64,000 nt of DNA from Lentisphaerota bacterium (GTDB taxonomy: Bacteria > Verrucomicrobiota > Kiritimatiellia > UBA8416 > VGWJ01). Shown one piece after another: positions 1-45,589 of this stretch (position 1 is its first letter; each line of letters starts with the position of its first letter). The DNA is taken from assembly GCA_016873635.1 (NCBI GenBank), contig VGWJ01000006.1:3102-67101 (forward strand). Direction: 5' to 3'. The notes beneath the pieces were generated by a model. That model saw nothing but the letters and a program-made list of their open reading frames with translations. It made no database searches and was not told the origin of the DNA. A program made the translations under genes and the position numbers.

Positions 1-3000
1 CGCTCCTGCTCGTCCTCGTGCAGGATGCGCCGCTGATCGAGCTCCTGCGTGGCGCGCTCCTGCTCTTCGCTCAGGGACAGCTGTTCCTGGCGGAGTTGCT
101 CGACCTGCAGGGCGAGCTCGTCCTCGCGCTGGCGGTTGCGGGCGCGCTCCTCTTCGGCCATGGATCTCTGCTGCTCGAGCTCCTGGGTGGCTTCCTCCAG
201 GCTCAGGGCGACGCCGCGGTGCTCGTCCTGCAGCTGGCTGAGGCGCGCGGCGAAGTCGGCCCGCTCCTGTTCGCCGCGCTGGCGCGTTTCGGAGGCCATG
301 GCCCGCTCCTGATCGAATTCGCGCCTGAGTTGATCGTAGCGGTCCTGCGCGTCCCGCAGGGCCTTCTCGTACGCGGCGAGCTTTTCCTCCGCGGTCTGTC
401 GCCGCTGCGCTTCGTCCTCGACCTGCGTGCGCGCGGAGGTGACCGCGTCTTCCCGCTGGGCGATGCGCTCGCGCTCCTCTTCGATCTGGCGGCGGGCCTG
501 CGCCAGCTCCTGCTCGCGCTTCCGGCGCAGCTTCTGCTCTTCGTCGAACAGCTTTCTCTGCCGGCCCAGTTCGTCGGCCTGCTGCTGCGCGCGCGTGCGT
601 TCGGTCTGGAAAATCCTGCGGTCTTCGTCGACCTTGACGTTGAGCGCGCGGTACCGCTCCTGGGTCTGTTCCATGGCCTTCTGGAAATCATCCTCGCGCC
701 GGGTGAGCTCCTGCTGCGCCGTTTCGTAGAGCTTCCGCAGCTCGGCCAGCTCCTGGTCCTTCTGCCGGAGGAGGGCCTCGGACGCCTCGACGCGCTCGGC
801 GCGCTGCGCCAGGTTCTCCTGCAGCGCCCGGTAGTCGGCTTGCGCCTGCGCGATGCGGTTCTCGGCTTCCGCCTGGCGCTCGGCCAGTTGCGCGCGCAGC
901 GCCTCGGCGGCCTCGGTCTGGCGGGCGGCCTGCTGCCGTGCGCCGTCGATCTCGGCCTGCAGCGACTGGAGCTTCTGCTCCGCCTGCTCGAGCCGATGCC
1001 GCGCCAGTCGCTCCTGCTCCGTCGACGTCTTGTCGAGTTCGGCGCTGAGCGTCTTCTGCTCGTCCAGCTCCGCGCGCGCCCTCCCGAGCTGCGCCTGCAT
1101 GTCCTCGCGCTCGCGCTGCAGGCGCGCGACGTGTTCGTTGAGCGCCTTTTCCCTGGTCTGGACGTTTTCCTCGGCCGAGGCATACAGCTCGGTCAGACGG
1201 GTCAGCTCGCGGCGTTCCTGGTCGAGGGCGAGGTGCAGTTCCTGCACCGTCTTGCGGCCCTCTTCAAGCTGCTCTTCGAGATAGGTCTTCTCGTTGCGCA
1301 GGCCCTCGATCTCGTCGCTCAGCGAGCTTTCGCGCTGGCGGCTGTCCCACTCGATCTGGTCCAGCCTGGCCGTGGTCTCGGCGCAGCGGCGCTGCAGCTC
1401 GTCGATGCGCGACTCGGCGGCGGCGTCGCGCGCGCGTCCTTCCTGGGCGGCCTGTTCGGCGGCGGCGCGCTGCTCGGCGAGATCCTCCTCGCGGCGCCGC
1501 AGCTCTTCGCGCGCGTCGTCCCGCAGCTTGGTCATTTCCTCGAGCTCGAGCTCCCTGTCGCCCAGGCGGCGCGTAAGCTCGCGGCACTCGTCCTGGACCT
1601 GGTCGAGGCGCTGCGCCAGCTCGTTGTCGGTCTTCTGCGCCCGCTCCTTCAGTTCGGCGACCACCGCGCGCTCCTGCCCCAGCTCCCTTTCCAGGGCGGC
1701 GGCGCGCGCGGCGCGCTGGTCGCGATCGGCGGCGAGCGCGCGCAGGCGCGCGCCGAGCTCGCCCTCCTTCTCGCTGCCGATGGCCATGGCGTCGTCGCGT
1801 TCGCGGCGCGCCAGATCCAGCTCGGCCTCCAGTTCGCCGATCTTCTCCAGCGCGGCCTTGCGGCGCTCGTAGAGCTTGCGGTGTTCCTCGAAATCGGTGC
1901 CGACAAGGCCTTGCAGGTCGAGTATGCGGTCCTGGAACGCCTTTTCGCGTTCGGCGAACGTCCGGCGCAGGCCCTCGAAAGCCTCGCGCTCGCGATCGAG
2001 ATCGGCGCCCAGGCGTTCGACCTCCTCGGCAAGCACGTGCTTGATGTGCTCGGTATGCGTCAGGCGCTCGGCTTCCAGCTCGCTGCTGCGCTGGAGGATG
2101 ACGTCGTAGCGGGCGCGCTCATCGCGGAGGTCGGCGCGCAAACCGTCCAGGGCCTTTGCCGCGCGCTGGCCCTGCGCCTGCAGGCCGTCAAGACGTCCGG
2201 CCAGGTCGCCCCGGCGCTCCTCGTCGCGTTTCGCGTCTGCGTCGGAAGCGGCGCGCAGGGCGGCCGCATGCGCCCTCGCCCCCGCGACTTCCTCAAGGGC
2301 CCGGCCGGCCGCCTGGCGCATGTCGCGGATGACCTCGCGCAGTCCCTGCTCCCGGGCGTGGCTTTCGTTGCGTATGCGCGCGAACTCGGTGATGCGCCGC
2401 TGGAGATCCTCTTCGGCGGCGCGCAGGCGCGCCGCGGCTTCGGTGGCCTTGCGCTCAAGCTCGGACGCCTGCCGCTTCATGTCGCCGACGCGAGTCTCGG
2501 TCTCCCGCGCCTGCGACTCCGTCCGGGCTCTCTCGGCTTCAAGCTCCGCGCGCGCGCGGTTGAGCTCTTCGGTGGCGCCGGCCAGCGCGGCCTTGAGCTG
2601 TTCGATGCGGGCGCTGAGGTCGCGGGCCTGCGCTTCGGCGTCGGCTCTCTCGGCCTCGAGCCGGCCGCGCGTCGCGCTCAGGTCTTCTACCGTCCCGGCC
2701 AGCGCGCGGTCCAGCTCCTCGATTCGCGCGTTGAGGTCGCGGGCCTGCGCTTCGGCGCGGTTCTTTTCGGTTTCGAGCTGCGCGCGGGCGTCCTCGCGTT
2801 CCTTTGTGGCGTCGGCGAGCGCGGCGTTGAGCTGTTCGATGCGGGCGTTGAGGTCGCGGGCCTGCGCTTCGGCGCGGTTCTTTTCGTCCTCGATCTGCTT
2901 CCTGATGCCGCTCAGATCGTCCTTGCTGCCGGCGAGCGCGCGGTTGAGCTGTTCGATCTGCGCGGCCCGGGCCGTGCTCTGGCGCTCGGCTTCGGTCAGC

Positions 3001-4013
3001 TTGGACGCCGTTTCCTGCGCCGAGCGTTCGAGTTCCGCGATCCGGTCGCGCATGGAGGTGAAGCGCGACTCCGTCTCCACCGCCATTCGCTCGCGGCCGG
3101 AGCCCATCGTCTCGATCTCGCGGCGCGCGGCAAGGAGGGCCTGCGTGGCCTGGTCGGCGTTCCGCCGGAGGGTATCGATTTCGCGGCGCAGCTCGTTCTC
3201 GCGTGTCCGGCTGCGTTCCTGCGCCTGCAAGCCGCTGGCCCGCTCGTCGCGCAGGGCTTTGCGGGCGCGGTCCAGGCGCGCGGCCGCGTCGGCCGCGCGG
3301 GACGCGAGGTCGTCGGCGGCGCGGCTCAGTCCGGCGAGTCGCTCGCCGTCGCCGCGTTTCGCGGCCGCCTGCTGCGCGCGTTCGGCCGCCAGGCGCTCGC
3401 GCGTCTGATCCAGCTCCTTCTCCATGGCGGCGGCGCCGGAGGAGATATCCTGGATGCGGCGCTGCAGGTCATGCTCGCGCGTGCGGCTCTCGGTCTGCAG
3501 CGCGTCAAGCCGTCGCGCGCGTTCCTGGAGGTCCTTCTCCGTCTCGCGCAGGCGGCCGGCCGCCTCGGCGGCCTGTCTTTCCAGCTCCGTCATCCTTTCG
3601 AGATTCTTCTTCAGCGCGGCCATGTCCTCGCCGGCGGGCGCCACGCCGAGAATGACCGCCTTCCGGGCGCCGACGGTGGTTTGCTCGCCGGTTTCCGCGT
3701 TGCGCAGGGGCGCGTCTTCGGTGATGGTCCCTTCCACCACGAGGTCGGCCAGGGCGCGGATGTTAAGCGGGCCGTACGGGGTTCCGTCGGCCAGGGTGAC
3801 CGTCCAGACCATGCGGAGTTCCCTGAGGTTTTCGACGGGAACCCACTTGCGATTGTCGGCGGAAACCTCGTTTCCGGGCGCAATGCGGCCCTGCTCGGCC
3901 CAGGCGATGAGGTCTTTGAGAGGGGCGGGTCCGAACACGGAACCGTCGTCGATCTTGAGGTACCACTGGTCGGCCGGGCCGGCCTTGTCTGTCGGTTTCA
4001 CTGGTTCGGGCAT
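1..4013 (-). CDS. Large coiled-coil protein, C-terminus beyond window. N-terminus has two tandem GYF-like/DUF4339 domains (WYLKIDDGSVFGPAPLKDLIAWAEQGRI... and MVWTVTLADGTPYGPLNIRALADLV...), followed by >1200 aa of E/R/A/Q/L-rich heptad-like coiled coil.
   Basis: I translated the reverse complement myself. It is open from the ATG at 4013..4011 (MPEPVKPTDKAGPADQWYLK...) through position 1 with no stop, and the composition is a typical coiled coil. The same-register + ORF 18..4073 is >30% Leu with almost no E/K, so it is the antisense shadow. The gene is absent from the ORF track, presumably because it has no stop inside the window. Confidence 0.7.
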   Translation of the reverse strand, partial: MPEPVKPTDKAGPADQWYLKIDDGSVFGPAPLKDLIAWAEQGRIAPGNEVSADNRKWVPVENLRELRMVWTVTLADGTPYGPLNIRALADLVVEGTITEDAPLRNAETGEQTTVGARKAVILGVAPAGEDMAALKKNLERMTELERQAAEAAGRLRETEKDLQERARRLDALQTESRTREHDLQRRIQDISSGAAAMEKELDQTRERLAAERAQQAAAKRGDGERLAGLSRAADDLASRAADAAARLDRARKALRDERASGLQAQERSRTRENELRREIDTLRRNADQATQALLAARREIETMGSGRERMAVETESRFTSMRDRIAELERSAQETASKLTEAERQSTARAAQIEQLNRALAGSKDDLSGIRKQIEDEKNRAEAQARDLNARIEQLNAALADATKEREDARAQLETEKNRAEAQARDLNARIEELDRALAGTVEDLSATRGRLEAERADAEAQARDLSARIEQLKAALAGATEELNRARAELEAERARTESQARETETRVGDMKRQASELERKATEAAARLRAAEEDLQRRITEFARIRNESHAREQGLREVIRDMRQAAGRALEEVAGARAHAAALRAASDADAKRDEERRGDLAGRLDGLQAQGQRAAKALDGLRADLRDERARYDVILQRSSELEAERLTHTEHIKHVLAEEVERLGADLDREREAFEGLRRTFAEREKAFQDRILDLQGLVGTDFEEHRKLYERRKAALEKIGELEAELDLARRERDDAMAIGSEKEGELGARLRALAADRDQRAARAAALERELGQERAVVAELKERAQKTDNELAQRLDQVQDECRELTRRLGDRELELEEMTKLRDDAREELRRREEDLAEQRAAAEQAAQEGRARDAAAESRIDELQRRCAETTARLDQIEWDSRQRESSLSDEIEGLRNEKTYLEEQLEEGRKTVQELHLALDQERRELTRLTELYASAEENVQTREKALNEHVARLQREREDMQAQLGRARAELDEQKTLSAELDKTSTEQERLARHRLEQAEQKLQSLQAEIDGARQQAARQTEAAEALRAQLAERQAEAENRIAQAQADYRALQENLAQRAERVEASEALLRQKDQELAELRKLYETAQQELTRREDDFQKAMEQTQERYRALNVKVDEDRRIFQTERTRAQQQADELGRQRKLFDEEQKLRRKREQELAQARRQIEEERERIAQREDAVTSARTQVEDEAQRRQTAEEKLAAYEKALRDAQDRYDQLRREFDQERAMASETRQRGEQERADFAARLSQLQDEHRGVALSLEEATQELEQQRSMAEEERARNRQREDELALQVEQLRQEQLSLSEEQERATQELDQRRILHEDEQE
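2581..2970 (-). repeat. Intragenic direct tandem repeats, 3-4 copies with a ~117-120 bp period, inside the coiled-coil gene. They encode repeated ~39-aa units (...KNRAEAQARDLNARIEQLNAALA...).
   Basis: Near-identical DNA blocks containing gagctgttcgatgcgggcg(c/t)tgaggtcgcgggcctgcgcttcggcg at ~2581, ~2698, ~2812 and a partial one at ~2929. Confidence 0.6.
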
Positions 4014-4097
4014 GCCACACCTCGTTGTTGCGAGCGTCTGCGCCACGGCGCCGGGGGCGGAGGGCCGTCATGATTCCGCGCCACTCAAGTACACGGT

Positions 4098-9274: not shown

Positions 9275-9359
9275 GTGCACCCGTGGTGAAACTGGTATAC
9301 ACGCAAGGTTCAGGTCCTTGTGGCCGCTAAGGCCGTGGGGGTTCGAATCCCTCCGGGTG
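9275..9359 (+). tRNA. tRNA-Leu, anticodon CAG. Class II tRNA with a long variable arm, 85 nt, CCA not encoded.
   Basis: Hand-folded: acceptor GCACCCG/CGGGTGC; 3-bp D-stem GTG/CAC with a GG-containing loop; anticodon stem CAAGG/CCTTG with loop TTCAGGT (U33, CAG, G37); variable arm GGCC-loop-GGCC; T-arm GGGGG-TTCGAAT-CCCTC. Confidence 0.8.
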
Positions 9360-9431
9360 CACCCGCCTCCGCCCCGGCGGCGGCTGTGGCGGACGGATCC
9401 GGCGCGTTGCCCGAAGCGGACGAGGTGTCTG

Positions 9432-35365: not shown

Positions 35366-36562
35366 ATGGCGATTTTGTCGAAACGCATCCTGGCCGACGT
35401 GCGCCACGAGTATCACCGGCGTTTCGGGCTGCGTCCGCGGCTGATGGATTTCGCCGGGCGGACCGGCGGCGCCGCCGACCCGCTTGACGCTCTGGCCGGA
35501 GTGCGCCGGCGGCGCGACTACGCCCTGCAGCAGAGCATCGGCGAGGGGCGCGCCTTCGTTTACGAGGCGGCGCCCGGCGTGGCCGCCTGGGTTCTGGGGC
35601 TTGAGGACCGGCGCATGGTGCACGGCGGCCTGCTCGCCGGCGAGGTGCGGGCGGGTGCGGACGGGGAAGCCCCGGCGTGCCTGGCGCGGATGGGCATGGG
35701 CCGTCGCGAGGCCGAGCGTTTTGTGGCGCGGCTGCCCAGGTGGCCGGCGCAGCGCGTGACCGAGGCGGCGGACGCGCTCTACGAGGTCTTCTACGCCGTG
35801 AGCGGCTGGACGCCGGCGCTGTTGCGGGAGAACCGTTTGCGCGTCATGCAGGAGCGCCAGATCCAGGAGGCCGCGGAAGACCAGCGGCGGCGCGGGGGCC
35901 AGGCGTTGTATGCCTTCGAAAAGGAGCGCATGCTGCTGGCGAACATCAGGGCCGGCGACCGCAACGGCGCGCGACGGATCCTGAACGACATGCTGGCCGC
36001 GATCTACCTGTCGTCGCCGAAACTGGTGGTGCTGCGGGCGCGCGCCGTGGAACTGATGAGCTGTCTTACGCGCGCGGCGATAGAGGACAACCAGTTGCTG
36101 GAGCCGCTCATCGACCGCAACCACGCCTGGACCGAGCGGCTGGTGCACGCCGGGAGCTTCGAGGATCTGTCGGTGCAGTTGATGGACGCGCTCGATGAGT
36201 TCATCGACGGCATCTACCTGCACGGCATGAACCGCTCCAACGAAAAGGTGCGGGCGGCGCTGGACCTGATCGGGCGGGGATACGCCGGGCGCATCAGCCT
36301 GCGCACGGTGGCCGCGGGCGTGGGGTTGAGCCCGGTGCGCCTGTCACACCTCGTGAAGGCCTTGACGGGTCGCACCGTCGGCCAGGTGATCCGGGAAGTG
36401 CGCGTCAGGCATGCCCAGCAGATGCTGGAGCGCACGTCCAGAAGCTGCGCCGAGATTGGCTACGAAGCGGGCTTCGGCGATCAAAGCTACTTCATCAAAC
36501 ACTTCAAGCGGCTGACCGGCGTGACGCCGGCCCGCTACCGGCGCCGCCTGCAGGCCCCTTGA
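35366..36562 (+). CDS. AraC-family transcriptional regulator with an N-terminal ligand/sensing domain and C-terminal double HTH.
   Basis: C-terminal ...ISLRTVAAGVGLSPVRLSHLVKALTG...GFGDQSYFIKHFKRLTGVTPARYRR. Confidence 0.85.
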   Translation: MAILSKRILADVRHEYHRRFGLRPRLMDFAGRTGGAADPLDALAGVRRRRDYALQQSIGEGRAFVYEAAPGVAAWVLGLEDRRMVHGGLLAGEVRAGADGEAPACLARMGMGRREAERFVARLPRWPAQRVTEAADALYEVFYAVSGWTPALLRENRLRVMQERQIQEAAEDQRRRGGQALYAFEKERMLLANIRAGDRNGARRILNDMLAAIYLSSPKLVVLRARAVELMSCLTRAAIEDNQLLEPLIDRNHAWTERLVHAGSFEDLSVQLMDALDEFIDGIYLHGMNRSNEKVRAALDLIGRGYAGRISLRTVAAGVGLSPVRLSHLVKALTGRTVGQVIREVRVRHAQQMLERTSRSCAEIGYEAGFGDQSYFIKHFKRLTGVTPARYRRRLQAP

Positions 36563-36750: not shown

Positions 36751-37185
36751 ATGAAGATCGAATGCCGGGTCGGTTTGTTCGCGGTTCTGCTGGGGCTGGC
36801 GAGCATGCATTGCCGGGGAGAGGGGGCGGGGGGCGGCGGCGTCGGCTGGGAGGAGATTGACAAGATCTACGGCTTCGGCAGCGAGAGAACCGAAGAGCAG
36901 AAGGCGGAGCTGTGGGGGCAGTACAAGGGGAAGAAGGTGCAATGGAAAGGCACCGTCACAAGCGTGTCCGAGACGTGGGGCAACCTTGCCGTGCAGGTCA
37001 GAATGAATCCGGCGACGCTTACCTCCGACGTGCTGATAATCCTGAAGGAGTCGGAAAGAGACAAGGCTTCGCGGCTGAAGGTGGGCACCTCGGCGACCTT
37101 CGAGGGCTTGCTTGACGCATGGGGCGCGGTGATTCCGATCAGCCTCGTTCAGGGCGAAATCCTGCAGTGGGATCTGCTGCTTTAG
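36751..37185 (+). CDS. Hypothetical secreted/lipoprotein (MKIECRVGLFAVLLGLASMHC).
   Basis: ATG at 36751 with GGAAAGGAACAAGG upstream. Signal peptide present. Confidence 0.5.
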   Translation: MKIECRVGLFAVLLGLASMHCRGEGAGGGGVGWEEIDKIYGFGSERTEEQKAELWGQYKGKKVQWKGTVTSVSETWGNLAVQVRMNPATLTSDVLIILKESERDKASRLKVGTSATFEGLLDAWGAVIPISLVQGEILQWDLLL

Positions 37186-38852
37186 AACTCCCGCCGGGCG
37201 AGGGAGCGCGCGGCCAGCCGCAGGGGGAGGGCCGTGGCGAGAGCGGTGAGCGCCAGCAGCCAGGCCGACGCGGCGGCGAGCCCGAGGCGGAAGTGGAAGG
37301 GCGTCAGGGATCCGACGGCCCGCCAGTGAAACAGCGCCCCGAACGGGACGATAGCCGCCAGCATGAAGGCCAGGCTGAGCACAAGGTTCAGCGTTCCCCC
37401 GAAGCCGGAGACGATGGCGGCGGGATTGGACTGGCGCAGATCCAGGAAGACCGCGCCCAGTCCGGTCGACAGCCCGCACACGGCCAGGGTTACGGCCGAA
37501 GCCAGGGCCACGGCCGTCACGCGGGCGACCCACGCGACGTGCAGCATGGCGCCCGACAGCATGGTCAGGCTCACGGTAACGGCGGTCAGGCCGAGCGCGG
37601 AGCTGAGGAATTTCGTCAGCAGGATGCGGCCCAGGCGCGCCGGGGAAAGGCCCACGACCCAGAAGGCCTGGCCTTCCAGGCTGAGCTGGGGATAGACGAA
37701 CCGCGAGCCGAGCGAGCACATGACGGCCGACACGCTGAACACGTTGAGCAGCGAGATGGCGCTGCGCCAGACGTCAGGCAGCACGTGGTAGCGGAATGTC
37801 CGCAGGTTGGCGAAATACAGCGCCAGCAGGCCGAAGAAGATCAGCGCCTGCGACCACTGCAGGGGGTCGCGCAGGAATGACCGCAGATCCTTCGCCAGGA
37901 CGCCCCGGACGTCGCCGGGCAGGAAAGCCAGCCGGCGGCTGATGCCGTTCAGCAGGAAGGGGGCGTGCCGGGCGGAGGCGCCGCCGGCGGACCGTTCCCA
38001 CGCGGGATAGAAGAGCCGCCCGCCCAGCCATTCCACGAGCACCACGCCCAGGCAGGCCCAGGAAACCAGGGTGGCCAGCAGCAGCGCTCCGCGCGCGAGG
38101 CCACCCCGGGCCATGGTCAGGATGCCCTCCGCGATCCACCAGTTCGGCAGCAGGGGGTTGGAGGCCGCGGTGAAACCGGGCACGAGGCGCGTCAGGGCGA
38201 AGGTGGTATGCCCGGCGCCCAGCAGAACCGGGATGCTCGAGCGCCAGCGCCACAGGATAAAGGCCGCGGCGGCGATCACGGCCGCGGCGCACCACTGCAG
38301 CAGGCGGGCGCGCGGGAACCAGCGCACCAGCAGGAACGTGAACAGCGCGCCGACGGCGGAGCACAGCACCAGGAAAGGCGCCGAAAACACGAAAGCCCAC
38401 AGCGCGAAGAGCAAACTCATGCGCTGGTGCACCGCGTAGGCGCCGGCGAAGGGAATGACAATGATGAAGAAGGCCCAGGAAGAAAAAGCGGTCGACTCCA
38501 GGAACTTGTAGACGGTGATGGCGGACATGCGGAAGGGATGCACCAGCAGAAAGGGAATCTCCTCGGAGCGGAAGATCGTGGAATAGGCCGACACGACGCC
38601 CGACACGGCAAGCATGGCGCCCATGCCCAGGAAGAACACGCCGAACAGGCGGTCGATCAGGATGCCGCCGGCCCCGCCGATCTTGGCGAAGAACCGGAAA
38701 CCGTCCAGGAAAAGGAAAAACAGGCCGGATTCCATCAGCAGGGCGAACAGCAGGATGAACCAGAACTTGAGCGACGACTGCTCGCGCAGGATACGGCCGA
38801 GGTTGACGGCCGAGCGGCGGCACTTGAAGACGAGGGCGCTTCGGGCGCTCAT
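37182..38852 (-). CDS. Large ABC-2-type transporter permease (556 aa, >10 TM).
   Basis: Hydrophobic multi-TM composition. Start overlaps the upstream ATPase gene's stop. Confidence 0.8.
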   Translation of the reverse strand: MSARSALVFKCRRSAVNLGRILREQSSLKFWFILLFALLMESGLFFLFLDGFRFFAKIGGAGGILIDRLFGVFFLGMGAMLAVSGVVSAYSTIFRSEEIPFLLVHPFRMSAITVYKFLESTAFSSWAFFIIVIPFAGAYAVHQRMSLLFALWAFVFSAPFLVLCSAVGALFTFLLVRWFPRARLLQWCAAAVIAAAAFILWRWRSSIPVLLGAGHTTFALTRLVPGFTAASNPLLPNWWIAEGILTMARGGLARGALLLATLVSWACLGVVLVEWLGGRLFYPAWERSAGGASARHAPFLLNGISRRLAFLPGDVRGVLAKDLRSFLRDPLQWSQALIFFGLLALYFANLRTFRYHVLPDVWRSAISLLNVFSVSAVMCSLGSRFVYPQLSLEGQAFWVVGLSPARLGRILLTKFLSSALGLTAVTVSLTMLSGAMLHVAWVARVTAVALASAVTLAVCGLSTGLGAVFLDLRQSNPAAIVSGFGGTLNLVLSLAFMLAAIVPFGALFHWRAVGSLTPFHFRLGLAAASAWLLALTALATALPLRLAARSLARREF

Positions 38853-39604
38853 GCCCGCGGCTCCCCCCCGGCGGCCGACTTCTCGTCCTCGGCCGTCAGG
38901 TGCAGGAACGATTCCTCGAGGTTGCGCTTGCCGCCGGCCCGCACGGAGAGCTCGGAGAGCGTGCCGAGGGCGATCAGCCTGCCCCGCGAGACGATGCCGA
39001 TGCGGTCGGCCACGTCCTCCGCGAGCGACAGGATGTGCGTCGTGAGCATGATCGTGACGCCGTCGCGCGCCTTGCGCAGGAGCATGTCCTTGATGAGGCG
39101 GATCGTGTGCGGGTCGAGCCCCACGAGCGGCTCGTCGATGAAGAGCACCCGGGGATCGTGCAGGAAGGTGCAGGCGTAGATGAGGCGTTGCTTCATGCCG
39201 TGCGAGAGCTCCTTGATCAGCGCGGAACGGTAGTCCAGCAGGCCGAAGAGGGCGAAGGTTTCGCGCATGGCGCGGCGCACTTCGTCGCGCGGAAGATCGT
39301 ACAGGTCGCCGATGAACTCGAAAAACTCGCCCGGGGTGAGGCGGTCGTACAGGTAGGGCATGTCGGGGATATAGCCGATCAGGCGCTTGACCGCCTCCGG
39401 TTCGCGCTGGATGTCATGGCCGCCGATGAGCGCGCAGCCGGAAGTGGGGCGCAGGAGCCCGACGAGAATCTTCATGGTCGTGGTCTTGCCGGCGCCGTTG
39501 GGTCCGAGCAGGCAGAAGAGCTCGCCGCGGGGCACGCTGAGATCGAGGTCGCGCACGGCGTGCGTGCGCCCGAAGCGCTTGTTCAGTCCGCGGATTTCTA
39601 TCAT
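38849..39604 (-). CDS. ABC transporter ATP-binding protein (ABC-2 subfamily).
   Basis: Walker A GPNGAGKTT, signature LSHGMKQRL, Walker B LFIDEP. Confidence 0.9.
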   Translation of the reverse strand: MIEIRGLNKRFGRTHAVRDLDLSVPRGELFCLLGPNGAGKTTTMKILVGLLRPTSGCALIGGHDIQREPEAVKRLIGYIPDMPYLYDRLTPGEFFEFIGDLYDLPRDEVRRAMRETFALFGLLDYRSALIKELSHGMKQRLIYACTFLHDPRVLFIDEPLVGLDPHTIRLIKDMLLRKARDGVTIMLTTHILSLAEDVADRIGIVSRGRLIALGTLSELSVRAGGKRNLEESFLHLTAEDEKSAAGGEPRA

Positions 39605-39605
39605 C

Positions 39606-40454
39606 TCATGACTCCGGCGCCAGCAGGCGCCCGGTTATGATTTCGAGGAGTTCCACGCCCTTGCCCGTGCCCGCCGCCGCCGCCAGGGCTTCCTCCCGCG
39701 TGCACTTTTCCGCCACCCAGCCCAGCGGCGATTCCTGCCGGAGGATGTTGCCCTTCGCGTCGATCCAGGTGCGGAACTGCATGCCCTGGTAGGCGGCGGA
39801 GAGGACGGTGGCCTCGACCGGACCTTCGGGCCCGGCGACGCGTTCCACGCCGACCGCCTTGACGCGCACGGCGGTCTTCTTCAGCGTGAGGGGGTCGAGG
39901 GCCGCGAGCGACATCTCCTGCCCCGGACGCAGCCGCCTCAGCGCCAGGAAGGCGGTCGGAGAGTGGATGACGACGTCGTCGGGGATCTCGACGCGCATGT
40001 TCCGGATCTCGCCGCCCGTGTCGAGGGTGACGTCGAAGATGGCGCCCTCGGCGCGGCGGCCGCTGACGGCGACCCGCAGCGCCCCGGCGGTGAGGTTGAA
40101 CGCGAATTTCCGAAGGCGGTAGGCGGCGTCAAGGGCGGCCGTGCCCGCGGCGTAGAAGCTCTGCGGCTGTCCCATGAGCGTGACGTTCAGATCGGTGCGA
40201 TTGCTGAGCAGGTAGGAGTCCTCTCCGCCGTCGTCCGCGGTGTCGATGCCGGTGTGCGTATAGCCGACGTCCCTTCCGCCGTACTTGACTTTCATCCAGG
40301 AGTCCGACACGAGGACGTCCCGCCGCAGCAGCCGGGAGTAGCCGCGGATGGAACTGGTGAACAGCTCGGGAAAAGCCTCGTAGCGGACGAGCCACGAGGT
40401 CGTGGCGGCGCAGAACAGAACGGCGGCCGCCCTGATGAGACCCAGTTTCACCGC
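39606..40454 (-). CDS. Hypothetical membrane-anchored protein (single N-terminal TM, ~260-aa extracytoplasmic domain).
   Basis: GTG at 40454 overlaps the upstream gene's TGA (GTGA coupling). Product has diverse composition. Confidence 0.55.
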   Translation of the reverse strand, partial: AVKLGLIRAAAVLFCAATTSWLVRYEAFPELFTSSIRGYSRLLRRDVLVSDSWMKVKYGGRDVGYTHTGIDTADDGGEDSYLLSNRTDLNVTLMGQPQSFYAAGTAALDAAYRLRKFAFNLTAGALRVAVSGRRAEGAIFDVTLDTGGEIRNMRVEIPDDVVIHSPTAFLALRRLRPGQEMSLAALDPLTLKKTAVRVKAVGVERVAGPEGPVEATVLSAAYQGMQFRTWIDAKGNILRQESPLGWVAEKCTREEALAAAAGTGKGVELLEIITGRLLAPES

Positions 40455-41662
40455 CGCGGTTCCATTTCGCGCAGCCTGGCGTCCAGCGCGGCAATCTGCG
40501 TCTGCAGATCGGCCGGGACGGCGTTGGCGGGAGGCGCGGCGTGCTGCCTGTTCCATTCCTCGAAGCTCTCCCGGGCGGCCCGGAGCCGGGCGGAGAGATC
40601 CGTCTCGCGGTGCTTCAGGAGGCGCAGCCGGTCGCCGTAGGTCATGCGCTCGGCGCCTTCCGCGGCATCGTACCTGGCGCGCAGGTCCTTGACCTCCGCG
40701 TTGAAGGCGCGCGCTTCCGCCCGCAGGCGCTCGAATTCCGCGCGGTGCGGGTTGCCGCGCAGGGCGGCGTCGCGCGCGGCGGTCTGCGCGTCGGCGATGC
40801 GGGCCTCGACCTCGGCCTTGCGGCGCACGAGGGCCTTTTCCTCTTCGCCGGCTTCGTCAAAAGATCCGCGCCGCACCACGAGATCGGCGGTCTTGAGCAC
40901 GAAGGGCGAGGGCAGGTCGGGCGTTCCGGAAAGGCCGGTGCACACCGCCACGTCGCCGGACGCGGAGGCCACGAGCCTGGCAATGGCCACCGTCGTACCG
41001 GCCGCGAGTTTGCCCCTGGGCTGGCCGCCGGTGTCGTAGGCCGTTGCCTGGGCGGACTTGACGATCCCCCAGCGCGTTTCGTCGGACCGGTACGAACCGT
41101 CCGGTGTTTTGCGGGCCGGGGCGGGCCGCGCGGCGCGGGCATGCGCCAGGGCGACCGGATTGCCGGGATGGCGCGCGCGCAGGCGGCCGGCCACCGGCGC
41201 GAGGCGCGCGCCGTCGCCCCGCAACTCGGCAAGGAGGGCCTCGTATCCCGACCAGCGGGTGAAGCGGAGCGTGCCGCGCGTGTCCACGCAGGTATTGATG
41301 AAGGCGCGGGCCGGCGTCTGGATCGTTTCGAGAAGTCCGGCGCCGCCGGTGAAAGGCGTGACCGCGCTCCGCGCCATTTCCTCGGCCATTTGCTCGGCCC
41401 CCCCGATGTCGCCGGCGCGCGCGAAGCAACGGATCAACTCGCATTCGAGATCCTGGCGCAGCCGGGGATGCGGCTCGGCCCAGGGACGGGCCTGTTCGAG
41501 GCGCGAGGCGGCTGCCTGCCAGCGGCCGGAAGCAAGCAACTCCCGGGCGCGGCGCAGGTCCTCCCGGGCGGCGGCGAACCTGGCGTACGGAACCGCAAAA
41601 AGGGTAAAGGCGCAGCCGAGCAGGGCGAGCAGGTAGTAGTGCACGGCGGCTTTGAACAGCAT
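40448..41662 (-). CDS. Hypothetical protein: N-terminal TM, TPR-like helical region, C-terminal coiled coil.
   Basis: ATG at 41662, 8 bp after the upstream gene's stop. C-terminal heptad-rich Ala/Arg/Glu region. Confidence 0.6.
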   Translation of the reverse strand: MLFKAAVHYYLLALLGCAFTLFAVPYARFAAAREDLRRARELLASGRWQAAASRLEQARPWAEPHPRLRQDLECELIRCFARAGDIGGAEQMAEEMARSAVTPFTGGAGLLETIQTPARAFINTCVDTRGTLRFTRWSGYEALLAELRGDGARLAPVAGRLRARHPGNPVALAHARAARPAPARKTPDGSYRSDETRWGIVKSAQATAYDTGGQPRGKLAAGTTVAIARLVASASGDVAVCTGLSGTPDLPSPFVLKTADLVVRRGSFDEAGEEEKALVRRKAEVEARIADAQTAARDAALRGNPHRAEFERLRAEARAFNAEVKDLRARYDAAEGAERMTYGDRLRLLKHRETDLSARLRAARESFEEWNRQHAAPPANAVPADLQTQIAALDARLREMEPRR

Positions 41663-41670
41663 GGATTACC

Positions 41671-43164
41671 TCAACGGCTGTCGCCGGGGGCGGGCTCGCG
41701 CCGATAGCTTCGCGCGGAGACCCTGTATTGCCGCTCCAGACGCGTGTTGGCCGCCTCCATCTGCTCCGCGTCCAGCACCAGGTCCACGGCTACCGTGCGC
41801 AGCGTGAGGGCCTTCAGCATCCCGTCTTCGCCGGCTATCTTGAACACGTCCCTCATGTTGCTCACCGGACGGCCGTTGACGCGCGTGACCACCATGTTGC
41901 CGAAATGCTGGTACCCGACATTGATGGGGTCGGGAAGAACCGCGGCCAGGATAACGATCCGGTCGCCGGGGCGCTCGGGGGCCAGGCGGCTCGTGAGATA
42001 GAGGCTGGTGAGCCGCGAATCCACGCGGTTCATCCACTCGGGCCCGTGGGACTGAAGGTAACGGCCGGTGAGCTCGCGCAGGAGCAGGCCGCCCTCGAGC
42101 AGGTACTCGGGCCGTTCGCGGGCCGTGTTCTCGGGGATCAGCGCGTCGTCGTCGGACCAGCGGGCCAGTCGGACATCGGCTTCCCGCTCGCGGCCGTCGC
42201 GCAGCAGGCGCACGGGGACCTTGTCGCCGGGCCGCCGGCGCCCCATGATCAGATAGGCCAGGTTGAGGCGTCCGTAGTCGGGGTCGTCGTAGAAGCCGAG
42301 GTTGTCGATGTCGCGGCCGTCCCAGCTCAGCACCACGTCGCCCGGACGCAGCGCTTCGGCGGCGCCGGTGCCGGGCAGGCAGGTCATGATCTGCACCCCG
42401 CGTCCGTCGTCGGGAGCGCGCAGGTAGGCGCGCTTGGCGGGGTCGACCAGCTCCTTCCAGACGAACCCGGCCCACGCCACGCCTTCGTACGGCTCGGTCT
42501 GCGCGTCGGCCACGAAACGCGCCAGCGTGTTGTGCGGCAGCATCGCGCCGATGCGATCCTGGCGGCTGTAGGCGATGAGCACGCCCGCCAGTTTGCCGCC
42601 GTGGAACACGGGCGCGCCGGCGCGGCCGACGTTCAGCTCGGTCAGCACGCTGAAGGTCAGCGCGCCGTGCGGCGCGTGGGGGAGATCCTTGACCGCGATC
42701 TGCACGACGCGGCCGTCGCCGCGCTGCGGGCGGCGCGTCTCGTCGAGCTGCACGATGGCGACCTGCGCGTCCGGGGGGATGGTCTCCGCCACCGGCACCG
42801 CCGTGAGTCCTCCGGCCGCGGGCGCGGCGGTGTCGAAGCGCAACAGGGCGCAATCCAGCCGGCAGTCCGCCATGACGAGGCGCGCGGCGATCTTCTCGCC
42901 GCGGCCCGCGCGGCGCAGCTCGACCAGCGTCTGGTTGCGCACGAGACTCTCCGTCGTGAAGACGAGGCCGTCGCCCACGACCACGCCGTAGCCTTCGCGC
43001 TGGTCGGGCTGGCGTTTCTGCCACGGCAGGAAAGGGTCGTATTCCTGGAAGGTGACGAGCACTTCCACAAGGCTGTCTTCAACCGCGGCCCGCGCGGGCA
43101 GGGCGCGGCCGGCGGCCGCGAGCGCCGCGGCGGCGACAAACAGGCTGAACGCGAAGCTTTTCAT
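41671..43164 (-). CDS. Catalytically inactive paralog of the upstream S1C protease (trypsin-like fold plus PDZ-like region; His to Ser and Ser to Ala substitutions).
   Basis: Aligns with its neighbour. TNAHIV is replaced by FTTESLV and GNSGGPV by GRAGAPV. Signal peptide MKSFAFSLFVAAAALAAAG. The ATG at 43164 overlaps the upstream stop (ATGA). Confidence 0.75.
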   Translation of the reverse strand: MKSFAFSLFVAAAALAAAGRALPARAAVEDSLVEVLVTFQEYDPFLPWQKRQPDQREGYGVVVGDGLVFTTESLVRNQTLVELRRAGRGEKIAARLVMADCRLDCALLRFDTAAPAAGGLTAVPVAETIPPDAQVAIVQLDETRRPQRGDGRVVQIAVKDLPHAPHGALTFSVLTELNVGRAGAPVFHGGKLAGVLIAYSRQDRIGAMLPHNTLARFVADAQTEPYEGVAWAGFVWKELVDPAKRAYLRAPDDGRGVQIMTCLPGTGAAEALRPGDVVLSWDGRDIDNLGFYDDPDYGRLNLAYLIMGRRRPGDKVPVRLLRDGREREADVRLARWSDDDALIPENTARERPEYLLEGGLLLRELTGRYLQSHGPEWMNRVDSRLTSLYLTSRLAPERPGDRIVILAAVLPDPINVGYQHFGNMVVTRVNGRPVSNMRDVFKIAGEDGMLKALTLRTVAVDLVLDAEQMEAANTRLERQYRVSARSYRREPAPGDSR

Positions 43165-44669
43165 TCGCCGAGATACGCGGGCGCGGGGACCGCGTAGGCC
43201 TCCATGATCCGCGGGGCGGCGGCGGCGGCCGCTTCCGCGCCGATGATCAGCTCGTCTTCCATGCCCTCGAAACGGATCACGTGGAATCCGCCCGCCGGCG
43301 ACGCCAGGGCGCCGTTGAACTCGCGCAGATTGCGCACGCGCGTCCCGTTGACCGTCCCGACCACGCCGTACAGGAAACTTTCGCTGTAGGTGTTGACCGG
43401 ATGCGGCAGCCGGCGTGTAAGGACCACGAACTCGTCGCGGCCTTCGCACAGGCCGTCGATCTTGGCGTAGGTGAGGAAATACAGCAGGCGCCGCGCATTG
43501 GTCTCGGACGTGGAAGACTTGATCGTTTCGAGATAGTTGCGCGAGAGGGGCGCGAACACCAGTCCGGCCAAAATCGCGTAGGGCGGACGCTCGTCGTAGA
43601 TGCGGCGGTAGCCAAAGGGGTCCGCGGGACCGGTGAGCGGCACGCTCACGCTCTGCGCGCTTCCCTTGCGCCAGACCTTCAGATCGATCGCTTCGCCCCA
43701 CTGCTTGCGCTCGAGCAGTTCCGCGAAAAGCACGCCGTTGCCGTCGAGCCGGATGGTGCCGTCGTCCGCGATATCGTGGCCGTCGATCGCGAGCAGCACG
43801 TCGCCCTCTTCCAGGCGTCCCGCGCCGCAGCCGAACGGGTCCAGGTAGTGCACCGCCACGCCCGACCGGGAATCCGGCAGGCCGAGGGCGCGGCGGAGGG
43901 CGGCGTTGCGCAGTTCGAGCGTCGCGGCGCCGAGCTCCTGGTAGCCGTGGTACGCGCCGTCGGCGATGTCGTCGAGGAAGCGCCGGATCACGGGCACGGG
44001 GATGGCGTAGCCGATGTTCTCCGCCCACGCCAGTCCCTGGAAGGCCAGGCCGACGACGCGTCCTCTGAAAAGCACCGGCCCGCCGCTGTTGCCGGGATTG
44101 ATCGCGGCGTCGACCTGCAGCACGAGGTGATGATCGACGCCGCTGTGGGAGTAGACGCTGTAGTCGATGCGCGAGACCACGCCCCGGGTCAGCGAAAGCC
44201 GGTCGCCCCCCATGGGGTAGCCCAGCACGGTGACCGTGTCGCTCAGGCGCGGCAGGGCGCCGGCGAGTTCCAGCGAGGTCGTGCCTTCGAAGAAGGAGGG
44301 GTCGGCGACTTCCAGCGTGGCGAGGTCGCAGTCGTGGCCGGCGAAACGGACGGCGGCGTCATAGCGCCGCGGATCGCCGTCCTTCTGGATCTGGATGAAG
44401 CGGGCATTGGAGACGATGTGGGCGTTGGTCAGGATGCGGCGCCTGCCGATGATGAAGCCGGTGCCGGTGCCGTTCATCATGCGGCCGCCCTGCCAGGGCA
44501 GGCTGTAGTCGTCCTCCTGCTTCGTGACGTGGATCTTCACGACCGAGCGGCGCGCGGTCTGAAAGGGCACCGCCAGCCCCGCGGTGGCCGTGTCGGCGGC
44601 CGCGAGCGCGAGGGCGAGGGCGAGGGCGAAGGCCGGGTTGACCGTTGACTTCATCATGCGAAGAGGCAT
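43161..44669 (-). CDS. S1C-family (DegP/HtrA-like) serine protease with PDZ domain and signal peptide.
   Basis: Catalytic-triad motifs TNAHIV, D, GNSGGPV. N-terminal MMKSTVNPAFALALALALAAA. Confidence 0.85.
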   Translation of the reverse strand: MPLRMMKSTVNPAFALALALALAAADTATAGLAVPFQTARRSVVKIHVTKQEDDYSLPWQGGRMMNGTGTGFIIGRRRILTNAHIVSNARFIQIQKDGDPRRYDAAVRFAGHDCDLATLEVADPSFFEGTTSLELAGALPRLSDTVTVLGYPMGGDRLSLTRGVVSRIDYSVYSHSGVDHHLVLQVDAAINPGNSGGPVLFRGRVVGLAFQGLAWAENIGYAIPVPVIRRFLDDIADGAYHGYQELGAATLELRNAALRRALGLPDSRSGVAVHYLDPFGCGAGRLEEGDVLLAIDGHDIADDGTIRLDGNGVLFAELLERKQWGEAIDLKVWRKGSAQSVSVPLTGPADPFGYRRIYDERPPYAILAGLVFAPLSRNYLETIKSSTSETNARRLLYFLTYAKIDGLCEGRDEFVVLTRRLPHPVNTYSESFLYGVVGTVNGTRVRNLREFNGALASPAGGFHVIRFEGMEDELIIGAEAAAAAAPRIMEAYAVPAPAYLGE

Positions 44670-44971: not shown

Positions 44972-45496
44972 TCAGAGGCTCAGGTTGAGCCAGATGCCGA
45001 ACTCAAGGTCCTTGAGATCGAATTCGCGGAGCGCCCGGCCGTTCTCGAAGACGTAGAACACCATCAGGTCGAAGTCTACGTGCTTGACCGGCAGGTTGAT
45101 GCCCGCGATGAACTGCCAGTAGAAACCGGTCCAGGGGTCGGCGTTGTCGCCGCGGTCAATGTAGGAATTCAGCACGCCCGCTCCGCCGCGCCAGATTCCG
45201 TCGTTGAAGATCAGGTTGAGCTGCGGCGTGTACACGGCCTCGACGGCATTGCTTCCCGTGAACGCCGGCACGTAGTCGAGGGCCACCTGCCAGTAGCCGG
45301 CTTCCTCGTGCCACTGGTAGGCCGCGGCGGCCGAAAAATTGCCGGTAAAGGGAAGGGCCTCGAAAGCCGAGTGGTCCACGTGGTAGCGGGACCCGACCGC
45401 AACGGAGCTGGAGGACGCAGACGAGGCGACAGACGGCCGGGACGGCAGTGACGTCGCCACAAGCGCGGCGGCGGCGATGGTAGTGATGGTCTTCAT
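44972..45496 (-). CDS. Hypothetical secreted protein, possibly a small outer-membrane beta-barrel (alternating aromatic/hydrophobic pattern).
   Basis: Signal peptide MKTITTIAAAALVATSL. Tyr/Trp/Phe-rich beta-strand-like periodicity. Confidence 0.55.
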   Translation of the reverse strand: MKTITTIAAAALVATSLPSRPSVASSASSSSVAVGSRYHVDHSAFEALPFTGNFSAAAAYQWHEEAGYWQVALDYVPAFTGSNAVEAVYTPQLNLIFNDGIWRGGAGVLNSYIDRGDNADPWTGFYWQFIAGINLPVKHVDFDLMVFYVFENGRALREFDLKDLEFGIWLNLSL

Positions 45497-45589
45497 GGCG
45501 CCGATTGTAGGAGGCGGCGACATCAGTGCAAGGTTTAAAGCAATGGGTTCATAGCAATGGGTCAGAAGCTGTAAGTTCCTCCGGGCGCG

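Follow-up and report, generated by a model that had tools for sequence, protein, structure and literature searches.

A composite envelope operon in a Lentisphaerota bacterium joins a live/dead Deg2-type protease pair to a type V ABC exporter with an anchored β-spiral protein

The 64,000-nucleotide stretch of DNA analysed in this study (the window) carries, at positions 37182-44669, six ORFs that all lie on the minus strand, where an earlier sequence-only reading had placed them, and that are joined by overlaps or by gaps of no more than 8 nt. In the direction of transcription, these are G1 (43161..44669), a predicted secreted Deg2/Deg9-type HtrA (S1C) serine protease; G2 (41671..43164), its catalytically dead paralog; G3 (40448..41662; 404 aa), a familyless TPR-like/SH3-like/coiled-coil protein with an N-terminal anchor; G4 (39606..40451; 281 aa), the short form of an anchored extracytoplasmic β-spiral protein; G5 (38849..39604; 251 aa), an ABC ATPase resembling the DrrA/ABC-2 group; and G6 (37182..38852), a 556-aa permease of family PF16949 (ABC_tran_2). 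Upstream, on the same strand and beyond the coordinates first given, lies a seventh gene, c6 (44972..45523), the 183-aa product of which looks like a small outer-membrane β-barrel. G1 and G2 overlap by an ATGA common to both (43161-43164), an 8-nt spacer separates the G2 stop from the G3 start (TGA GGTAATCC ATG), G3 and G4 overlap by a GTGA (40448-40451), G4 and G5 are 1 nt apart, and G5 and G6 overlap by a second ATGA (38849-38852). Both ATGA positions had been placed correctly at the outset; the G4 start had not, as it is a GTG at 40451, on which the JGI and NCBI calls agree, and not at 40454. G1 has two candidate starts, an ATG at 44669 or the one at 44657 called by JGI. In the NCBI annotation of the source MAG, the permease G6 is named "hypothetical protein" and the dead paralog G2 "serine protease."

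Because homologs of all six proteins keep the same order in other genomes, these are real genes rather than ORFs that a 69% G+C sequence would contain by chance. A search within and beside the cluster gave no intrinsic terminator or sigma-70-like promoter signal that stood out from background. The signal peptides of G1, G2, and the barrel protein, together with the membrane anchors of G3 (which may face the periplasm or the cytoplasm) and G4, place everything but G5 in the envelope.

The first notable component of this cluster is a pair of HtrA-like proteins, only one of which retains a catalytic site. G1 can be assigned to the HtrA/Deg (MEROPS S1C) proteases, Deg2/Deg9 subtype, from its sequence: Pfam detects Trypsin_2 (1e-23, 85 bits), PDZ, and PDZ_3 (PF17815; 2e-23, 83 bits), with Trypsin_2 and PDZ_3 above their cut-offs, in the protease-PDZ1-PDZ2 arrangement of this subtype, and Arabidopsis Deg2 (PDB 4fln) matches residues 40-496 at E=2e-78, with Deg9 at 6e-73. 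A hydrophobic signal segment is present at its N terminus, and its triad is intact (H84 in TNAHIV, D115 in HDCDLA, and S195 in GNSGGP), as it is in 15/15 first-paralog orthologs. G2 has the same architecture, also preceded by a signal peptide (PDZ_3 at 7e-24, Trypsin_2 at 5e-08), and lacks both the catalytic His, with TTESLV at the site, and the catalytic Ser, with GRAGAP at the site. Among 31 aligned Deg sequences, drawn from 16 loci, the first paralogs keep H/D/S and the second paralogs lack His and Ser in all 15 other loci, which rules out G2 as an active HtrA protease and bears out the proposal, made from the window alone, of a secreted S1C protease followed by a dead paralog. We conclude that G2 is an HtrA-fold pseudoprotease. 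It directly follows G1 in every locus, with the 4-nt overlap kept in most of them, and is probably a non-catalytic subunit or an activator of a mixed cage. There is a precedent for this in MamO, a dead HtrA paralog that is needed non-catalytically for proteolysis by MamE (PMC4794232). As in MamE/MamO, the gene for an active HtrA is found together with one for a degenerate paralog; however, unlike the Deg2-like PDZ_3 pair described here, MamE and MamO are DegP-like, carry extra cytochrome or TauE domains and serve magnetosome formation, and there is no orthology beyond the HtrA family (the MamE NCBIfam model gives 73.5 bits, its cut-off being 800). In plant Deg2, the second PDZ brings about assembly into hexamers and keeps the protease locked in its resting state (PMC3481350). 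G1 differs from Arabidopsis Deg2 and Deg9 in being bacterial, in being directed to the periplasm by a signal peptide, and in always being encoded with a dead paralog.

The pair is flanked by G3 and c6. G3 has one N-terminal hydrophobic helix (predicted transmembrane segment at residues 6-24), and TPR_19 (E=0.0035) is the sole Pfam match of the window copy. Its orthologs, which are 19-26% identical to it in the alignment, match TPR_14 in 5 of 15 cases (best 2e-5) and SH3_7 weakly in one, and a search of the G3 profile against the PDB returned no meaningful match. What is conserved is a C-terminal helical/coiled-coil region with the motif NPHA..Y..A..Y..F..KV..L..RD.A.G..RM.Y.D.L..MK. On the other side of the pair, c6 is separated from the co-oriented G1 by 300 nt and encodes a signal peptide. 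It has no Pfam match in the window copy, one ortholog giving a sub-threshold match to OMP_b-brl (E=0.003), and its C-terminal residue, aromatic in the orthologs, is Leu in the window. Ten orthologs used as tblastn queries match it at 31-43% identity (E down to 1e-37), and in 10 genome loci and 13 metagenome loci the Deg pair has this gene immediately upstream. It is part of the conserved neighbourhood of the operon.

G4, like G3, has a single N-terminal hydrophobic helix, in line with the two membrane-anchored proteins recognised at first sight. The stretch immediately after this helix is the most conserved part of the protein, with an invariant juxtamembrane motif (WLVRYEAFPE.FT...GY), as would be expected for a docking surface. 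The rest is predicted to form an antiparallel β-spiral/barrel resembling Brucella EipB and PA1994, more weakly LolA, with further fold matches to LmcA, RseB, and YmcC. This likeness is one of fold only, since no gathering score is reached for DUF3108, DUF1849 (EipB), or DUF1089 (PA1994): DUF3108 scores 16.4 bits on the window copy against a Pfam cut-off of 26, and distant relatives stay below threshold as well (21.1 bits for DUF3108, 23.5 bits for DUF6134). The sequence similarity of G4 to EipB (DUF1849, PDB 6ntr) is negligible (8% identity); moreover, EipB is soluble and confined to Alphaproteobacteria, whereas G4 is membrane anchored and in most cases carries a fused transglutaminase-like domain. 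To our knowledge, EipB has no link to an ABC transporter. That additional domain (PF01841) is found at the C terminus of most G4 orthologs (~500 aa), with conserved GDCNEH, FYYHAW, and DPT motifs, the Cys/His/Asp motifs being kept in no fewer than 33 of the 39 long orthologs. The window G4, which ends at residue 281, before this domain, is not itself a transglutaminase-like enzyme. Loss of the domain correlates with Deg adjacency when loci from both scans described below are pooled (Fisher p=0.006); however, within the Deg-containing clade the correlation is weak or absent (~11:5 versus 5-6:7, a hand count from tree labels), and a replacement of the transglutaminase domain by Deg is therefore not established. 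The domain calls on the two hypothetical proteins thus give a familyless TPR/SH3-like/coiled-coil protein for G3 and an EipB/PA1994-like spiral for G4. EipB serves envelope integrity in the periplasm and has a genetic partner in the TPR protein TtpA, with no direct contact between the two found in the same study, which also draws attention to a resemblance to LolA/LolB under the heading "A lipoprotein connection?" and includes lnt in its genetic analysis (bioRxiv 10.1101/551135).

The last two genes encode an ABC-2 exporter, as initially proposed, with a membrane domain of the type V fold. G5 matches ABC_tran (4e-26) and has complete motifs (Walker A GPNGAGKT, Q-loop, signature LSHGMKQ, Walker B VLFIDEP, and H-loop TTH); its best NCBIfam match is the drrA subfamily (234.8 bits, under the cut-off of 312). 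G6 belongs to PF16949 (E=1e-103), and its model is all helical, with 12 membrane helices in a type V exporter fold nearest to NosY (16% identity), CcmB, ABCG, ABCA, and PmtD. Permease family, permease fold, and ATPase motifs all identify G5-G6 as an ABC-2/type V exporter. NosY, CcmB, ABCG, ABCA, and PmtD act on membrane-embedded or periplasm-facing substrates. The size of G6, which had been described as unusual, is most simply explained if two type V membrane domains have been fused, the model indicating that the chain probably consists of two halves of 6 TM helices, both with an amphipathic helix in front.

The initial view that the cluster matches no Lol, Lpt, Gld, or Nos cassette also holds. 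For GldAFG, the GldA score is 170.7 bits where 402.6 are required, and no GldF or GldG model matches any of the six proteins. For LptB2FGC, the LptB score is 126.8 bits against an equivalog cut-off of 240, the permease has no β-jellyroll, and G4 is a spiral and not an LptC jellyroll. NosDFY is approached only through the fold-level likeness to NosY, with no NosD-like protein in the cluster, and LolCDE-LolA differs in its soluble LolA and in a permease of type VII (MacB/FtsX-like), a large part of which forms a periplasmic domain. More generally, in comparison with NosDFY, CcmAB, and LptB2FG-LptC, the cluster has no NosD β-helix, NosL, CcmC/D, or LptC/LptA jellyroll, its membrane domain is a single 12-helix chain, and the acceptor is a β-spiral. 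The mycobacterial drug-efflux pump Rv1217c-Rv1218c is also of the ABC-2 type with a fused permease, but it has no protease or β-spiral partner, its host is a monoderm-like actinobacterium, and it shows no detectable sequence match to the G6-family profile. Every part of the cluster belongs to a known superfamily (HtrA, ABC-2, TPR, or LolA/EipB-like spiral), while no characterised example of the complete system is known; we found no experimental study of any PF16949, G3-family, or G4-family protein, with PF16949 mentioned once in one paper and DUF3108 in passing in five.

Another important finding is that the six genes are not scattered over different conserved neighbourhoods elsewhere, which would have refuted the original proposal, and that the arrangement is nonetheless composite. 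We compared 136 related loci, scanned from the permease side and from the G2 side. The permease is encoded in at least 587 species genomes, mostly of the PVC group, and the G4-ATPase-permease core is seen in ~58 of 80 loci. Sixteen species-level genomes have the full order Deg-Deg-G3-G4-ATPase-permease, their permeases being 47-54% identical to that of the window. These amount to 16 of ~45 informative permease loci, as opposed to ~28 of ~45 that lack a Deg pair in the neighbourhood covered. Locus L033, from a MAG of Victivallis vadensis, carries the complete cassette. In the scan that started from G2, 10 of ~19 informative loci run on into G4-G5-G6 (7 full and 3 partial metagenome loci), and the other 9 have a Deg pair without a nearby exporter, adjoining unrelated housekeeping genes such as homocysteine methyltransferase-like or pyruvate:ferredoxin oxidoreductase-like ones, sometimes in the company of the barrel gene and G3. 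The single, tightly coupled unit described at first is thus real as a unit, but it is a composite of two separately conserved modules, one consisting of the barrel gene, G1, G2, and G3, and the other of G4, G5, and G6. Since both modules occur alone, neither needs the other in cis. The G3/G4 overlap in the window lies across the module boundary, and the corresponding junction is 0-12 nt in six other loci (L008, L010, L012, L023, L026, and L066). G3 travels with the Deg pair in every fused locus that could be scored and follows it without the ABC module in three loci only (L091, L107, and L118), the L107 contig ending after G3. In the permease tree, the fused loci group within a single large section and may stem from one ancestral event, in which case their recurrence reflects retention rather than repeated independent assembly. 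Genes for outer-membrane barrels or channels precede the cluster in several clades (c6 here, a COG4313-type channel, c15, elsewhere). No substrate gene was evident.

What might such an operon do? Envelope quality control or secretion/processing, as suggested by the sequence-only reading, is a reasonable inference, and our best reading, to which we give an even chance, is that of a composite envelope operon for extraction and processing. Two copies of the G5 ATPase would drive one 12-helix G6 permease, and G4, anchored in the inner membrane and presumably docked beside the permease, would present a hollow EipB/PA1994/LolA-like β-spiral on the periplasmic side. On the model of LptB2FG-LptC, LolCDE-LolA, and NosFY-NosD, the pump would extract a hydrophobic or amphipathic membrane-embedded substrate and pass it to G4, candidates being a lipid, or a peptide or protein that is lipid anchored or spans the membrane. 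The transglutaminase-like Cys-His-Asp domain carried by G4 in most lineages, but missing from that of the window, suggests that a periplasmic enzymatic step is part of the core design. The other module, which in the lineage of the window is joined on upstream, would contribute a periplasmic Deg2-type protease, its obligatory dead paralog, G3 as an anchored TPR/coiled-coil scaffold, and a small outer-membrane barrel. Either the Deg pair may degrade or process material delivered by the pump, or the pump may clear products cut by Deg.

The most serious alternative, which we regard as doubtful yet well short of improbable, is that two independent systems share one transcript, quality control by Deg, G3, and the barrel on the one hand and unrelated export by G4-G5-G6 on the other, their adjacency being an inherited accident of one clade. 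This would fit the finding of each module alone in many genomes, the confinement of fused loci to a single region of the permease tree, as expected if the fusion arose once, and the fading of the transglutaminase/Deg complementarity within that clade by hand count. However, gene order and tight boundary junctions have been kept across ~50% permease identity, the boundary gene G3 accompanies the Deg pair in all scorable fused loci and is rarely found with it when the ABC module is missing (three loci), and the products all act in one compartment. Lipid or lipoprotein trafficking, in which the pump would extract a lipid, glycolipid, or acylated protein from the inner membrane and the G4 spiral would shield acyl chains on the way to an outer-membrane barrel, with the proteases as accessories, seems unlikely. 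Related type V systems (ABCA, ABCG, Wzm, and TarG) transport lipids or cargo linked to lipids, barrel or channel genes (c6 or the COG4313-type c15) lie upstream of the cluster in several clades, and the G4 fold resembles EipB, PA1994, LolA, LmcA, RseB, and YmcC, the EipB study itself having raised LolA/LolB likeness and lnt (bioRxiv 10.1101/551135). Against this, G4 is membrane anchored and leaves the system with no soluble shuttle, there are no adjacent lipid or glycan biosynthesis genes, and most G4 orthologs have a transglutaminase/cysteine-protease-like domain, an indication that the substrate is a protein or peptide. A role in peptide export, maturation, or immunity, with an exporter of bacteriocin or PSM-like amphipathic peptides and a processing protease, is very improbable, as neither the window nor the 136 related loci contain precursor-peptide or modification genes, the core, present in no fewer than 587 species genomes, has the distribution of a housekeeping gene and not of an accessory trait, and its neighbours in other genomes are housekeeping genes.

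The composite extraction and processing system that we favour is of interest because its core is widespread in the PVC group, the envelope biology of which is poorly known. The universally kept live/dead Deg2-type pair is in itself an example, beyond MamE/MamO, of a bacterial HtrA pseudoprotease that has been retained. If the two modules cooperate, ATP-driven extraction would be coupled to ATP-independent periplasmic proteolysis, and the enigmatic EipB-type fold would be placed beside a defined transporter. In its most specific form, which is speculative and a long shot when taken as a whole, this would be a new envelope machine of PVC bacteria (Kiritimatiellota, Lentisphaerota, and relatives) in which a type V extractor pulls a membrane protein or lipoprotein from the inner membrane into an anchored EipB-like spiral, to be cut or transamidated by the transglutaminase-like domain and/or by a TPR-held live/dead Deg2 cage. 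If true, this machine would open a new pathway, serving either quality control of membrane proteins or the maturation of lipoproteins or surface proteins, and would provide the first biochemical context for the EipB/DUF3108-type fold.

The principal finding of our analysis is that the six-gene cluster at 37182-44669 is a genuine and conserved unit that is modular in its make-up, bringing together an HtrA-type protease pair and an ABC exporter. The genes, G1 to G6 in order of transcription, are arranged head to tail on the minus strand: G1 (43161-44669; start codons at 44669 and 44657 are both possible) encodes a live protease, G2 (41671-43164) its dead paralog, G3 (40448-41662) and G4 (39606-40451) membrane-anchored proteins, G5 (38849-39604) the ABC ATPase, and G6 (37182-38852) the permease. 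Direct reading of the ORFs and their junctions confirmed the tightly joined unit proposed from the sequence alone. G1/G2 and G5/G6 each have an ATGA in common and G3/G4 a GTGA, while G2/G3 and G4/G5 are separated by gaps of 8 nt and 1 nt, respectively. The start of G4 had been placed at 40454; it is instead a GTG at 40451, giving a protein of 281 aa. Since homologs of every product are found in the same order elsewhere, G1-G6 are genuine genes and not chance ORFs of G+C-rich sequence (~69% along the whole length of the window). An identical copy of the permease gene is present in an NCBI MAG and on metagenome contigs from Lake Tanganyika. In the NCBI records (locus tags FJ225_02155 to 02170; proteins MBM4142386 to 4142391), the products from G1 to G6 are named serine protease, serine protease, hypothetical, hypothetical, ABC transporter ATP-binding protein, and hypothetical; the labels "serine protease" for the dead paralog (MBM4142390.1) and "hypothetical protein" for the PF16949 permease (MBM4142386.1) are misleading. 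Consensus promoter and terminator scans of the cluster returned matches at background numbers only, and an Rfam scan of the whole window found no regulatory RNA near it, the sole match at the gathering threshold being a tRNA gene at 9277-9361 (+). Beyond the permease, a convergent 144-aa ORF (36751-37185, +), the stop codon of which overlaps that of G6 (37182-37184), has only a weak tRNA_anti-like (OB-fold) match (E=0.003) and lies next to an AraC-family regulator gene (35366-36562, +). At the left end of the window (1 to ~4090, -), a Glu/Arg/Gln-rich, apparently coiled-coil protein of more than 1355 aa, with an N-terminal region that is GYF_2-like by eye, runs off the end; its gene explains the AT skew of -0.44 in the first 4 kb, and the long ORF on the opposite strand (18-4073, +) is an antisense shadow of it.

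The conservation of the cluster was analyzed from both ends. The permease-side scan, using one genome per species, identified at least 587 carriers of the PF16949 family, and for the best 80 loci the six proteins were mapped and all neighboring ORFs clustered. These 80 loci are nearly all from Kiritimatiellia, Victivallales/Lentisphaerota, Verrucomicrobiota, and "PVC group" MAGs, together with three Desulfobacterales MAGs. Adjacent G4, ATPase, and permease genes are present in ~58 of them and the full Deg-Deg-G3-G4-ATPase-permease order in 16, whose permeases are 47-54% identical to G6 of the window; one of the 16 belongs to a Victivallis vadensis MAG. The tight G3-G4 boundary is also found in other genomes. 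On a rough neighbor-joining tree of the permeases, Deg-linked loci are confined to one large region, where they are mixed with unlinked ones, and there are none in the other two regions. The reverse scan, from G2, yielded 56 metagenome loci. Among those with enough downstream sequence, seven continue into the full exporter module, three into its start, and nine are without it, the latter adjoining homocysteine methyltransferase-like, pyruvate:ferredoxin oxidoreductase-like, and other unrelated genes (identities from our own reading of the sequences). Because both scans show that the exporter and the Deg pair are each also found apart, the cluster is a composite of two modules, one comprising a putative barrel gene with G1, G2, and G3, and the other the G4-G5-G6 core. 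Fusion of the two is ancient, kept in one clade, and not obligatory. The sequence-only reading, which suggested that the six genes may be one envelope quality-control or secretion/processing system, is thus partly supported: the order recurs and the unit is real, but its modules are separable. The main rival explanation, in which two modules are merely co-transcribed, draws on this separability and has the recurrent full order to contend with; we consider it rather unlikely.

G1 contains Trypsin_2, a PDZ, and a Deg2-type PDZ_3 domain (Pfam), aligns end to end with Arabidopsis Deg2 (4fln; E=2e-78) and likewise with Deg9, and scores far under the cut-offs of the DegP, DegQ, DegS, and MamE equivalog models. 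It is therefore a Deg2/Deg9-type HtrA—these being its nearest known relatives—rather than a DegP ortholog. Both G1 and G2 have signal peptides. While the catalytic residues H84, D115, and S195 are all there in G1, G2, of the same architecture, carries TTESLV in place of the catalytic His motif and GRAGAP in place of the Ser motif. That one protein is active and the other dead, as first proposed, holds well beyond the window: in an alignment of 31 Deg proteins from 16 related loci, the triad is kept in every first paralog, and both His and Ser are missing in every second paralog, with replacements that vary between loci. This consistent loss indicates that the pseudoprotease is old and retained. 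G1 immediately precedes G2 in the G2-side loci (n=56) wherever the contig extends far enough, and the 4-nt overlap is kept in most loci. The nearest known case of such live/dead pairing is MamE/MamO, which shows that a dead HtrA paralog has been kept in other bacteria too: MamO is required non-catalytically for MamE proteolysis (PMC4794232). In Deg2, hexamer formation is mediated by the second PDZ (PMC3481350). G1 and G2 may form a mixed live/dead cage.

Other genes accompany the modules. An ORF at 44972-45523 (-), coding for 183 aa that include a signal peptide, lies upstream of G1 across a 300-nt gap; orthologs of this ~180-aa secreted protein are directly upstream of the Deg pair in 10 of the 16 full-cassette loci and in 13 metagenome loci, and one of them has a sub-threshold outer-membrane beta-barrel match. 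The gene probably belongs to the unit as its seventh member. In another clade, five loci have a 272-aa Phenol_MetA_deg/COG4313-type outer-membrane channel (E=1.4e-6) upstream of a core with long G4, and the outer-membrane protein found with the core therefore differs between lineages. Further loci have at this position a ~220-aa protein that we read as HAD-family-phosphatase-like. Between G2 and G3, nine loci encode a ~90-aa protein, apparently with two or three membrane helices, where the window has only the 8-nt gap. Directly 3' of the permease, on the same strand, many Deg-linked loci (nine were recorded) carry a ~510-aa PAS-domain sensor histidine kinase with a C-terminal receiver; the nearest kinase genes in the window are ~6.5 kb further on from the permease.

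G5 has the complete motif set of an active ABC ATPase and is nearest to the DrrA subfamily, although under the cut-offs for DrrA, GldA, LptB, and NodI. PF16949 matches G6 along its entire length (E=1e-103), and no NCBIfam model does. As a profile search of the PDB found no sequence-level relative, the fold was obtained by modeling (pLDDT 83), which predicts an N-terminal amphipathic helix, six long helices, a second amphipathic helix bearing an invariant KD.R.F.RD..QWSQ motif, and six further helices. The nearest known pieces are NosY/CcmB and Rv1217c. The pump is type V and is constantly paired with an anchored beta-spiral, which usually carries a Cys-His-Asp domain. The initial impression that this is no standard Lol, Lpt, Gld, or Nos cassette proved correct: the defining partners are missing, equivalog scores fail, and the LolCDE permease fold is type VII.

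The beta-spiral partner, G4, has an EipB-type fold, with VioE, YmcC, LmcA, and LolA matching at lower scores; Foldseek concurs on these relatives and adds RseB. DUF3108 and DUF6134 (Pfam) give sub-threshold matches only, in the window G4 and distant relatives. When 1.84 billion representatives were searched with a profile, 1994 relatives, of both lengths, were retrieved at E<=0.001. The window G4 is the short form, whereas most orthologs are ~500 aa with a C-terminal Transglut_core domain, in which Cys, His, and Asp motifs (GDCNEH, FYYHAW, and DPT) are kept in at least 33 of 39 orthologs. The permease tree suggests that this domain was lost several times. We considered the Deg pair as a replacement for it, since short G4 is enriched at Deg-linked loci (16:10 vs. 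7:24, Fisher p=0.006) when both scans are pooled, a pool itself enriched in Deg loci by the scan picked from the G2 side. However, in the part of the tree where Deg-linked loci occur, the short:long signal is not convincing (~11:5 vs. 5-6:7, counted by hand from tree labels), and five to ten loci have long G4 together with a Deg pair. Substitution was therefore dropped as a firm claim.

Orthologs of G3 share only 19-26% identity with the protein of the window. A single N-terminal hydrophobic helix is followed by a helical stretch that resembles TPRs weakly (TPR_19 in the window, E=0.0035; TPR_14 in 5 of the 15 family members scanned against Pfam, best 2e-5), and then by a short beta-rich segment with one weak SH3_7 match. 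Conservation is strongest in a helical region at the C-terminus (NPHA..Y..A..Y..F..KV..L..RD.A.G..RM.Y.D.L..MK), and the original "TPR/coiled-coil" label is fair. No matching family was found in Pfam, NCBIfam, or the PDB, where a profile search gave coiled-coil noise only, and a large search for homologs, run from the G3 alignment, retrieved just two proteins. The nearest known counterpart of G4 adjoining a TPR protein is EipB-TtpA: EipB is a periplasmic spiral-shaped beta protein required for envelope integrity, and it forms a synthetic lethal pair with TtpA, a periplasmic TPR protein (bioRxiv 10.1101/551135). The parallel with G3 directly upstream of G4 is suggestive, nothing more.

All products but the ATPase are secreted or membrane-anchored. 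LptB2FG-LptC, LolCDE-LolA, and NosFY-NosD are transport systems that offer analogies for extraction and hand-over. On this model, the pump would extract a hydrophobic or amphipathic membrane-embedded substrate and pass it to G4, whose conserved juxtamembrane motif may dock on the permease, and a periplasmic enzyme—the fused transglutaminase-like domain, a Deg cage positioned by G3, or both—would act on the cargo. The reverse order would be just as possible: the Deg pair would cut first, and the pump would remove the resulting fragments. We hold this general extraction and processing reading of the whole cluster with evenly balanced confidence. Lol-like lipid or lipoprotein trafficking, with the proteases incidental, would fit the LolA/LolB resemblance of EipB remarked on by its authors (bioRxiv 10.1101/551135); it appears quite improbable. 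Peptide export or immunity seems highly improbable.

We found no experimental characterization of the PF16949, G3, or G4 families in the literature. The value of the finding lies mainly in defining a widespread, unstudied envelope system of the PVC group, and in placing both the EipB-type fold and a conserved HtrA pseudoprotease in a genomic context.
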